64,000 nt of DNA from Fimbriimonadia bacterium. GTDB lineage: Bacteria; Armatimonadota; Fimbriimonadia; Fimbriimonadales; JABRVX01. The notes below the pieces were generated by a model, which made no database searches, was not told the DNA's origin, and saw only the letters and a list, made by a program, of their open reading frames with translations. The DNA lies in contig JBGPGO010000004.1 of assembly GCA_041483895.1 (NCBI GenBank), positions 1 to 64,000 of the forward strand, in the 5' to 3' direction. The position numbers were made by a program, and so were the translations under genes. Of this stretch, positions 24,102 through 27,424 are shown one piece after another (position 1 is the first letter of the stretch; each line of letters opens with the position of its first letter).

Positions 24102-24791
24102 ATGATTTGGCGCCGCCGAGTTACCAACCATTTTGCGATCAGGATTTTGATGTTAGCCGCTGTGGCATGGCTGTCCCTTTTGGCAAATGTCGGCTGCCGG
24201 AACCGGACGACTGCCTCCCCAGAATCGGCAGCATCTATCGCTCCTCGGAGCAATGCTGGCGCACCGCCGGCGTATTCTAATCCTGGCGCAATTCGGAATG
24301 ATCAACCTTCCGCAGAAGAACAAGCCGCCCAAAGCTATTTGGATCGTCTGAGGACCGTGCAGTCACACTTCACGACCGTCTGTGCGACGATGCGGCAACG
24401 GAGTGTCGAACTGATAGCCCAGGGTCGGAGGAGGATGGAGGCAATCCGCGCGGGAAACCCCGATAACGGTGATACTAAGGACTGGGACAATTTCCTTTGG
24501 GATACAGGCCGTAATATGAAGACAATAATTAGTGAAGCGGGATCGTTATCCCCGCCGAATTCCGCCGTTGCATTGAATGACTCGTACAAACGGTATTTGC
24601 AGGCCACGTTTGATGCCCTTGGACGAATCTGGAGCGGCCTGAAACTTGCCGACAGCGACCCAAAGGCGGGAAGCGAGTACCTCCAGCAACAAAAGCAGGA
24701 CACGAGCGTCACGATCGCAGAACAGACCGCGAAAAAGGAATTCTCCGCATTTGTAGCAAAGTGGCACCTCCATCCTTCTTGGCAATTGTGA
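24102..24791 (+). CDS. Putative lipoprotein, paralog of 25156-25932
   Basis: Lipobox-like NVGC; shares YLDRL, GSLSPP, FVAKWHLH.W.L. Confidence 0.7.
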   Translation: MIWRRRVTNHFAIRILMLAAVAWLSLLANVGCRNRTTASPESAASIAPRSNAGAPPAYSNPGAIRNDQPSAEEQAAQSYLDRLRTVQSHFTTVCATMRQRSVELIAQGRRRMEAIRAGNPDNGDTKDWDNFLWDTGRNMKTIISEAGSLSPPNSAVALNDSYKRYLQATFDALGRIWSGLKLADSDPKAGSEYLQQQKQDTSVTIAEQTAKKEFSAFVAKWHLHPSWQL

Positions 24792-25155: not shown

Positions 25156-25932
25156 ATGATGCCGAAGTTTGTCATCGAACGAGAGCTGCCAGGAGCGGGC
25201 GATCTATCCAAGCACGACCTCCGCGGTGTGGCGGGTAGGCCGAAAGCATTTTGCCGCCGCACTCCCAGCCATTATGCGTTCAGGTTTTTGTTGTTTGCCG
25301 TCGTGGCAGGCTTGCCTGTTTTGGCAGGTGTCGGCTGCAAGAATCGGTCCGGTGCAAACCTGCAGTCGGCAGGCTCCAATGCGGTCCCCCAGACAACCTC
25401 CAATGGAACACCGGCATTTTCCAACCCGAACGCGATTCAGAATAATGAACCGACAACGGATGCAAAAGCGGCGCAGGCCTACTTGGACCGTCTAGGCCCC
25501 ATCAACGCTCGGTTCAATACTCTGTTCAAATCGATGGATGACAAGATGATCGCCATGATCCAGGATGCGGAGCAGAAAGCGCGTTCCGGGGCGCCCCCGT
25601 CTGAGGCAAGCATTTCGGAAGAATTCCAGGTAACGATGAGACCGGCTGCCACGGAAATGAACGCCATCTTTAAGGAGTTCGGTTCCCTGTCTCCGCCTCC
25701 TTCGGCCAAACCGCTGCACGATACCTATCTCCGATTTCTAACGTCGACCTGGGATGCCCTTCGCAAGGTCTGGGACGGATTAGAGATGGGGAAGGTAAAT
25801 CCACAGGCGGGATCAGACTACATGAAGCAGCAGGGGCTCGCTCAGACCGTCGCGGCGGCGCGGCAAGAAGTCGGGAGAGAACTGTCGGCGTTCGTATCAA
25901 AATGGCATCTGCATCAAACCTGGCGTCTGTGA
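25156..25932 (+). CDS. Putative lipoprotein, paralog of 24102-24791, with a DUF4242-like N-terminal stub
   Basis: RBS GGAGGG; MPKFVIERELPGAG; lipobox-like GVGC; YLDRL, GSLSPPP, FVSKWHLHQTWRL. Confidence 0.7.
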   Translation: MMPKFVIERELPGAGDLSKHDLRGVAGRPKAFCRRTPSHYAFRFLLFAVVAGLPVLAGVGCKNRSGANLQSAGSNAVPQTTSNGTPAFSNPNAIQNNEPTTDAKAAQAYLDRLGPINARFNTLFKSMDDKMIAMIQDAEQKARSGAPPSEASISEEFQVTMRPAATEMNAIFKEFGSLSPPPSAKPLHDTYLRFLTSTWDALRKVWDGLEMGKVNPQAGSDYMKQQGLAQTVAAARQEVGRELSAFVSKWHLHQTWRL

Positions 25933-25987: not shown

Positions 25988-26020
25988 TCATCCCTTCACA
26001 GTGCGACTGTGAAGGGATGA
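25988..26020. repeat. Palindrome TCCCTTCACAGT-N3-ACTGTGAAGGGA between convergent genes
   Basis: Second copy at 35708-35734, also between convergent genes. Confidence 0.75.
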
Positions 26021-26029
26021 CAGAGCTTC

Positions 26030-26818
26030 CTAGCGACAGCGGCAGCTACAGGTGATTTTGCCGTCAATCTTGTTGTTGGAAGACGAGGCGGTTGCAATGA
26101 CGACACAAACTGTCTGGACATGACCTGCTGGAGGCTTCGGACATTTGCGCCCCTTGCAGATCGCTGCGTTCGCGGCCTTTTCACATTCCGCCTCGGCCTT
26201 TTTCGCAAGGTCCTCGGCGCTGGTGCCTTCAATGTGCCGCTTGATCTCCCAAGAAGCGGCGTAGTCACAGTCTTTTGCCTCCAGCGGCTTTTCGCATTTG
26301 CACTTGCAAGTGACGCGAGTCGGGAGCGCTAGATTACAGCTCACCGGCATGCTGCCATTGGGACAGTTCGTTGGGCAACCGGCGGTACCGATCGGCACGG
26401 CCGCGCAGACGGCTGCCGAACTTGCGGACACGATCGGCTCGCATTTGTCGAGTTGAGGAGCTTCTTTCCCACCGGGCGGAACCTTGCCGACCGGCGGGCA
26501 TTTCCTTTCGGCGCACTTCTTGTTTCCGCCAGAGGTTGGCTCATTTACGCCGCATTGCTTCTTCAGCTCTTTATTTAAGGCTTCGGTCGCTTCGGCAGCG
26601 CTGCATCCGCAGCCCGTGATCCCGGCGCCCTCATATTCCCAGGCCGCCTTTACTTCGCAGTCGGCAGCCTGTGCACTGGCTCGAAGCATGCCGGTACTCA
26701 ACATTCCCAGGAACATCGCCAAACCGCCGGCCATTCTCCCAATCCAACCGAGGAAATCCCTGCGCGTCGTGAGGTTGGCTACCGATTCCGCTAGTTTCGT
26801 AACTTTCTTTTCTCCCAC
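26030..26818 (-). CDS. Tat-exported cysteine-rich protein (22 Cys, two internal repeats)
   Basis: TTRRDFL twin-arginine motif, ASA/AQA cleavage region, RBS GGGAGG; both repeats end T-C-x-C-x-C. Confidence 0.8.
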   Translation of the reverse strand: MGEKKVTKLAESVANLTTRRDFLGWIGRMAGGLAMFLGMLSTGMLRASAQAADCEVKAAWEYEGAGITGCGCSAAEATEALNKELKKQCGVNEPTSGGNKKCAERKCPPVGKVPPGGKEAPQLDKCEPIVSASSAAVCAAVPIGTAGCPTNCPNGSMPVSCNLALPTRVTCKCKCEKPLEAKDCDYAASWEIKRHIEGTSAEDLAKKAEAECEKAANAAICKGRKCPKPPAGHVQTVCVVIATASSSNNKIDGKITCSCRCR

Positions 26819-26836
26819 TTTGTCCTCCCTTATCCG

Positions 26837-27424
26837 TTAGGGCGCCGCATCAATGTGATGTGCGGATTGATGCCGTTCATCGACACTAGATAATAAAAAC
26901 TGAATGTGCTGGTCGTTGTTCACGACACCCGTCGCCAGAATCTTTCCGTCCGGGCCGATATAGAAGGCGAACGGTGTCGCGAAAACCTCGTACTTCTTGG
27001 AGACTTCCCAATTGTGCTGAGCCGCGAACGGATATGCTCGCCCATTCGATTCAGCTATCTCGCCGGCCGGAATGTTGCAGACCTCCAGCACCGAGACCTG
27101 CCCTTTCTTATGTAATCGAGATAGCGCCGGCTCCACCGTGCTGCACGGCCCTCAGCCGGGCTGCGTAAATACCAAGAGTACCGATCTATCCGCAAAGTTG
27201 CACAGCCGGATAGTTTTTCCGTCGGGGTCAGGCAATTCAAAGTCAGGGGCCGTGGCGCCTACCTTCAGCCCGCTTCGATTGGTCTTCGATGGTGTGACAG
27301 CAGCCAACTGGTCCAGCCGCCATTGCATCAAGGCAAGCTGCCGCAAGACGCCAAGCATCAGGAAGATGCCAAACGCCGTGAGGATCCCGCAAGTCGTGAC
27401 GAGAACGATAAGACCAGTCGACAC
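26837..27424 (-). CDS. MauD/TlpA-like membrane-anchored thioredoxin, probable selenoprotein (UGPC)
   Basis: N-terminal TM, GLKVGATAPDFEL, VFTQPG-TGA-GPC in frame with the downstream ORF, cis-Pro motif ATPFAFYIGPDGKI. Confidence 0.75.

Follow-up and report, generated by a model that had tools for sequence, protein, structure and literature searches.

A MauD-like thioredoxin gene with a likely selenocysteine codon and a Tat-tagged, cysteine-rich partner form one copy of a cassette common in metagenomes

What does a membrane-anchored thioredoxin, whose gene has an in-frame stop codon at its catalytic position, do for the cysteine-rich protein encoded directly after it? This question is raised by two minus-strand genes of a Fimbriimonadia bacterium (GCA_041483895.1), located within the first 64,000 nt of contig JBGPGO010000004.1, the whole stretch of DNA that was analysed and that we call the window. 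The original prediction described the second gene as starting 18 bp after the thioredoxin behind the RBS GGGAGG, and its product as a 262-aa protein with a TTRRDFL motif and 22 Cys divided 14 and 8; the sequence bears out this layout throughout (Table 1). The spacing from thioredoxin stop to second start is 18 nt, the product, hereafter the cargo, carries the TTRRDFL Tat motif (S/T-R-R-x-F-L) and a hydrophobic stretch, and its Cys fall at residues 54–175 (14) and 184–261 (8). Under translation table 11 gene 1 appears as two ORFs of 90 and 99 aa, and reading TGA as U gives one 195-aa protein with the sequence QPG-U-GPC. In 4/4 sediment runs, which represent one strain and one of which may be the source sample, one contig per run spans this TGA without differing letters. 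The TGA is thus not an assembly error.

Table 1. Features of the gene pair, in positions of the window.
Feature	Position	Strand	Basis
Gene 1, MauD-like membrane-anchored thioredoxin, 195 aa, U91-G-P-C94, cis-Pro loop A-T-P	26837..27424	-	TGA=U translation, Pfam/NCBIfam
Gene 1 N-terminal hydrophobic anchor, residues 1-27	27344..27424	-	sequence and homolog pattern
Gene 1 in-frame UGA at first Cys position of CxxC, likely selenocysteine	27152..27154	-	translation, homolog codons
SECIS-like hairpin, 4-bp upper stem, GGA loop 17 nt past UGA, -8.4 kcal/mol	27124..27144	-	PMC13188914 criteria
Cargo gene RBS GGGAGG	26824..26829	-	sequence
Cargo gene (gene 2), 262 aa, GTG start, 22 Cys, without Pfam family	26030..26818	-	ORF, Pfam
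Cargo MauA-like Tat leader, Glu 8 residues ahead of twin Arg	26669..26818	-	leader profile
Cargo repeat 1, residues 52-175, 14 Cys	26294..26665	-	Cys count, model
Cargo repeat 2, residues 182-262, 8 Cys	26033..26275	-	Cys count, model
Palindromic element right past cargo stop, possible transcription end	25988..26020	.	blastn

The gene 1 protein matches AhpC-TSA and Redoxin (Pfam PF00578 and PF08534). Its top NCBIfam model is MauD (TIGR02661), at 60.4 bits and thus below the curated cut-off of 188.6, and the same model is matched by 40/40 thioredoxin family members. The closest relatives are metagenome proteins at 42–50% identity, and the names attached to more distant ones include Planctomycetes and Gemmataceae. 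A metagenome scan returned 112 relatives, and the loci analysed are the best 80 of these 112. Of 71 homologs, 65 have CGPC or CSPC as their active site, and Thr precedes the cis-Pro in 38/38 parsed homologs. In a tree, annotated MauD proteins form a separate long-branch clade (support 100/100), and the gene 1 protein sits on a long branch (1.09) whose placement is unsupported.

We found that the partner of these thioredoxins recurs through its leader. A profile built from 49 leaders of the metagenome loci, for which the cargo of this genome was not a seed, matches somewhere in 66/80 loci and directly downstream of the thioredoxin in 54/60 loci whose thioredoxin stop was located and is followed by 100 nt or more; the remaining 20 of the 80 have too little downstream room (14) or were unparsed (6). 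Co-occurrence of thioredoxin homologs with Tat Cys-rich partners, which the original prediction had set as its test, is therefore the rule among these loci. Across 40 aligned leaders, invariance is limited to Met1, one Glu and the twin Arg, and TIGR01409 matches 17/40 leaders scanned and does not match the full-length cargo. Within the source genome the cargo is the top match of the leader profile, at 32 bits, followed by ordinary Tat proteins at 22. The gene pair is one copy of a cassette common in metagenomes. The 52 complete cargos found elsewhere are 52–159 aa long (median 100) and fall into 31 clusters with freely varying Cys spacing, none of them linked to the cargo of this genome, which is the largest observed, with a mature part of 210 residues. 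An even Cys count is found in 46/50 complete cargos with at least two Cys, or 26/29 counted per cluster. As the leader is conserved and the core hypervariable, the unit of the cassette is the thioredoxin plus a leader with a free core. It was originally proposed that the catalyst is dedicated to this cargo family; since the constant part is the leader rather than the two-repeat domain, that dedication is unsupported.

The nearest known counterpart is MauD/MauA of the mau cluster (e.g. Paracoccus denitrificans PD1222 plasmid 1), which has the same order, a thioredoxin followed by a Tat-signal Cys-rich protein. MauD and the gene 1 protein are about 26% identical and share an N-terminal anchor with the same charge pattern and a thioredoxin fold with CxxC (UxxC here). 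MauA and the cargo share a similar extended Tat leader with a Glu before the twin Arg, and the leader profile matches 3/3 MauA leaders (E 6e-7 to 3e-3 when six sequences were searched). Thus the view that the substrate does not resemble MauA holds for the mature part and not for the leader: the two cores are unrelated, the cargo core is hypervariable, and the MauA TTQ light-chain domain (TIGR02659) has no match in the cargo at E 0.1. The active site also differs, being CPVC in 3/3 annotated MauD and CGPC, CSPC or UGPC in the MauD-like family. Whereas the mau cluster has mauE by mauD, the genes flanking the pair are unrelated; the absence of mauE was correctly predicted and extends to the genome, which is 95% complete and has no MauE match (PF07291), and neither mauB nor mauG is among the seven neighbouring ORFs scanned with Pfam. 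The 80 metagenome loci likewise gave no MauE match with a weak 3-sequence profile. The pair appears to work like MauD/MauA, yet we do not count it as a member, because score, motif and missing partners all speak against it. RiPPs and bacteriocins follow a leader-core precursor logic, and the cassette resembles such systems in its conserved leader, hypervariable Cys-rich core and extra tandem precursors (L047, L057, L083). It differs in that its leader is a Tat signal, its sole partner is a thioredoxin and the cargo here has 210 mature residues; genes for a peptidase, an ABC exporter or a radical SAM protein were not observed beside the pair. Neither the cassette nor a Sec-containing MauD is described in the largely open-access main texts searched; supplementary selenoprotein catalogues could list such a gene.

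On which side of the membrane the thioredoxin acts is indicated by the charges around its anchor. The gene 1 anchor has no Lys or Arg before it, and Arg28 and Arg36 after it. The same holds for 53/53 homologs with a located start, none of which has Lys or Arg before the anchor and all of which have 2–4 within 15 residues after it, and for 3/3 annotated MauD proteins (L103:3438-4040, L104:2441-3049, L105:2432-3046). Unlike this MauD-like set, two generic TlpA-like proteins have basic residues before the anchor. By the positive-inside rule, the flank rich in basic residues lies in the cytoplasm, and so the charge pattern predicts a cytoplasmic thioredoxin domain (N-out/C-in) and suggests that MauD itself may face the cytoplasm. 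An active site of CGPC or CSPC, together with Thr ahead of the cis-Pro, is more in keeping with a reductase or isomerase than with DsbA. The original prediction had envisaged a folding catalyst; the predicted topology and the active site point more to a cytoplasmic reductase or isomerase than to oxidative folding. Because the charge distribution predicts a cytoplasm-facing thioredoxin, we favour a reductase/isomerase chaperone acting before export over a periplasmic oxidase.

Together, these features lead us to a reading that we rate at slightly below an even chance: a widespread leader-plus-variable-cargo cassette in which a likely Sec-containing, cytoplasm-facing thioredoxin edits cysteines in the Tat-tagged partner ahead of export. 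The thioredoxin would recognise the cargo leader and, as a proof-reading reductase or isomerase, would strip or shuffle premature cargo disulfides. Tat would then export the edited cargo, and net oxidation would take place outside the membrane through a housekeeping VKOR-DsbA fusion. The genome encodes such a fusion as well as TatC, and has no match to DsbB. In this host the Sec would make thiol exchange faster on a client that, with 11 disulfides, is unusually large.

The main rival, which we regard as unlikely, keeps the cytoplasm-facing topology, supported by the same 53/53 homologs, and makes the thioredoxin an oxidase: the cargo disulfides would form ahead of export, and the cargo would reach Tat already folded. 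Tat substrates are normally folded, a preference that favours this oxidase and makes export of a reduced 210-residue chain awkward, and the even cargo Cys counts fit as well. It is further in line with the consulted part of a bioRxiv preprint (10.64898/2026.03.05.709764), in which MauE replaces DsbB, MauD is presumed to be DsbA-like, and neither Tat nor selenocysteine is mentioned. Against an oxidase, the cassette offers no electron sink, MauE being unmatched in the genome and, with the weak profile, in the 80 loci, and the CGPC motif is of the thioredoxin type. Less likely again is a thioredoxin domain outside the membrane, serving as a dedicated DsbA/DsbC-type folding catalyst after export, as is usually assumed for MauD. 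Bacterial disulfides normally form outside, and the VKOR-DsbA system could supply oxidising power. The periplasmic prediction for the CXC of MauE, in the same preprint (10.64898/2026.03.05.709764), also agrees with this placement. It conflicts, however, with the N-out/C-in charge pattern of 53/53 homologs and 3/3 MauD, and a conserved leader is best read ahead of its cleavage.

We next consider the stop codon itself. The UGA of gene 1 very probably encodes selenocysteine. After it the frame stays open for 104 codons, every invariant residue is kept, and there is neither a frameshift nor a second stop. At 17 nt past the UGA begins the GGA loop of a hairpin with a 4-bp stem. The bSECIS criteria of PMC13188914 (section 5) are a loop of 3–9 nt with G first, a stem of 4–16 bp, a spacing of 16–37 nt and an MFE of -7.5 or lower; the gene 1 hairpin lies within all four, marginally, at -8.4 kcal/mol; in another folding window it has -7.0. 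Its stability is not better than that of shuffled sequences (z -0.5), and a competing fold wins once the bases adjoining the UGA are included. The genome has two more UGA genes with a GGT loop at the same +17 offset, one TlpA-like (C9) and one deiodinase-like (C1); by the rule of this analysis, three further UGA candidates have G-loops at a larger offset and two have none. The +17 pattern is found in 0/71 Cys homologs, at 0/588 TGA ends of long ORFs and at 35/5317 Cys codons. As it was defined after inspecting gene 1 and the C9 gene, the C1 gene is the independent case. The loop codons of the hairpin impose a Glu on the protein, and 0/71 homologs have Glu at that position (Val, Ala, Ile, Met, Thr, Ser or Leu instead). 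A coding-potential screen of the genome for UGA genes did not include gene 1 in its output.

The genome encodes selA, tRNA-Sec (selC) and a selD that contains a TGA of its own, along with at least six other plausible selenoprotein genes. No selB was found in the assembly (95% complete, 43 contigs); it is present in 2/2 genomes of the same family, and its absence probably reflects an assembly gap, which could not be pinpointed because the selB neighbours are not syntenic. We consider it improbable that the UGA is a recent nonsense mutation that made gene 1 a pseudogene, with housekeeping enzymes left to fold the cargo or the cargo decaying too. Such a mutation needs only one base (TGC/TGT to TGA), the residue is Cys in all 71 homologs, and the failure to find selB would agree with it, as would the long branch and the weaker conservation past the UGA, where gene 1 keeps 27/41 conserved columns (66%; the lowest of 40 homologs keeps 71%) as compared with 33/42 before it. 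However, the stop sits on exactly the codon expected for Sec, the hairpin offset is shared with two other UGA genes and goes with a matching departure in the amino acid sequence, the intact frame shows no other damage, and the genome has those further selenoprotein candidates.

That gene 1 likely uses Sec is as originally predicted; a selenium-dependent system is not borne out. The catalytic codon is TGC or TGT in 71/71 distinct homologs with DNA, a count from the best 80 loci (6 unparsed, 3 duplicates removed) that is biased against Sec forms as one of the two seed patterns demanded Cys. Since all 71 use Cys, the family is not selenium-dependent: Sec is dispensable for it and is a single-genome embellishment. 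A search for truncated proteins, with 120 of 258 matches listed, confirmed no second Sec member. Among those listed, one 90-aa protein (P0111) ends exactly at the catalytic codon, and about one such ending is expected by chance because many truncated-protein matches are fragments. A further candidate, L109, was rejected as its flagged TGA falls after the domain. UxxC selenoproteins of the redoxin and Prx-like thiol:disulfide oxidoreductase type (PF08534, PF00578; PMC13188914, Table 1) share Pfam families, the UxxC motif and a bSECIS-type hairpin with gene 1, and differ from it in that its partner substrate is encoded next door; that table has 119 selenoprotein families and none that is MauD-like. 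Conversion of Cys to Sec in thiol oxidoreductases is a described trend (PMC1794560).

The cassette is present in 1/228 genomes of the class, the source genome itself, which suggests transfer followed by Cys-to-Sec conversion. The thioredoxin profile found only longer, mostly double-domain Cys relatives among 401 genomes of the phylum, 301 of another phylum and 228 of the class, and a scan of a set of genome contigs gave two distant loci. GC3 is 0.65 against a median of 0.70, not clearly foreign. We conclude that the cassette probably reached its host by horizontal transfer, after which it would have been recoded from Cys to Sec in a selenoprotein-rich host. Other genomes encode five double-thioredoxin relatives with Cys motifs (L091, L093, L094, L109, L110), in whose short flanks the leader profile found no partner.

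What is carried behind the leader was harder to place. An Ala-x-Ala cleavage site lies near cargo residue 51, as judged by eye. The two homologous repeats of the original prediction are real and share the same predicted beta-alpha-beta-beta order, and are weakly alike in sequence (BLASTP E 0.006, 29% over 68 columns; hhalign E 1e-4 global with a probability of only 28%). CxCxC closes both. The model of repeat 1 has a beta-alpha-beta-beta core with a Cys-rich, low-confidence insertion, and both repeat models are of low confidence (pLDDT 55–56, built with three sequences and one sequence). The structure check that had been proposed for each repeat gave no Foldseek match at E 0.001, and structural comparison of these low-confidence models gave best Z scores of 5.7 and 4.7, all neighbours being below 8: HP1454 (Z 5.7, rmsd 3.4, 66 aligned), Lpp20 (4.8), DUF74 (4.4) and dodecin (3.7–3.9), as well as DUF1471, likewise beta-alpha-beta-beta folds found as neighbours of both repeats. 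In these models the fold likeness would be that of a common arrangement, and it supports no functional inference. The PDB gave no match by cargo sequence, the ESM Atlas none at or above 0.9, and Pfam and NCBIfam no family, metal-binding families included.

A word-based homolog search over 612 candidates returned only the cargo itself, and a full HMMER search gave four matches. One homolog (P0018) is 34% identical in the mature part with 20 Cys and the same leader; another (P0016) is 42% identical in the mature part with 22 Cys, and because its called start has no twin Arg, the cargo fold may also be exported without the cassette. P0017 was dropped as spurious, being a Cys-free repeat protein. 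In 401 genomes of the phylum the cargo profile matched only the source genome. Even Cys counts favour disulfides over metal, and we infer that the cargo likely serves in binding or interaction, as a secreted protein whose two small alpha/beta domains are stabilised by disulfides. That its cysteines instead bind metal, held reduced by the thioredoxin for loading before Tat export, is very improbable: Tat is typical of cofactor-loaded proteins, CxCxC ends both repeats and a cytoplasmic reductase would fit, but the strong even-Cys bias, the freely varying Cys spacing over 31 clusters and the lack of any match to a metal-binding family argue against it. Elsewhere in the genome, at C5:179658-179750 (-) (locus L116), is a small Cys-free Tat protein whose mature part resembles one cargo repeat by eye.

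The action of MauD and its membrane side are still assumed in the consulted part of the cited preprint (10.64898/2026.03.05.709764), and a minimal two-gene cassette with small interchangeable cargos makes both directly testable. The charge pattern runs counter to the customary view of a periplasmic, DsbA-like protein, and the testable surprise is a predicted cytoplasmic, leader-directed role. If the leader does direct the thioredoxin, the cassette would supply disulfide-rich miniprotein scaffolds from nature and possibly serve as a tool for producing them. In the Sec copy, Cys-to-Sec recoding can be followed cleanly in a single gene, the SECIS being visibly imposed on the protein sequence. It is possible, although on balance doubtful, that MauD-like thioredoxins at large are leader-directed, cytoplasm-facing disulfide editors, perhaps even forming disulfides there, for a huge, unexplored repertoire of Tat-exported disulfide-rich miniproteins of which MauA is one client, and that the source genome holds the first Sec version, recoded after transfer for its 11-disulfide cargo.

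Around the pair itself, no promoter-like site was found on the cassette coding strand. The palindrome past the cargo stop has 105 blastn matches genome-wide (both arms may be counted), often as nearby pairs, and is REP-like. Convergent on the cassette are two adjacent look-alike genes (24102-24791 and 25156-25932) whose N-termini are of lipoprotein type and which match nothing significantly in Pfam or NCBIfam. Among the metagenome loci, Ser/Thr kinase genes, mostly with TPR repeats, lie near the cassette in L021, L038, L049, L051, L062, L070 and L072. A kinase gene is found in the fetched stretch of 7/15 longer loci listed, with 34 chosen ORFs scanned, and ECF sigma factors precede the kinase genes in L021 and L038. 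This context, which is absent around the source-genome pair, hints at signal-induced expression of the cassette. Four loci (L047, L057, L083, L017) have two or three cargo genes each, with the same leader and different cores. In the source genome, likely selenoprotein UGA genes with redox-type motifs are found at C9:26812+, C1:2544+, C3:162077+, C26:7332+, C25:39655+ and C22:7146-, the last of which has 497 codons ahead of its UGA.
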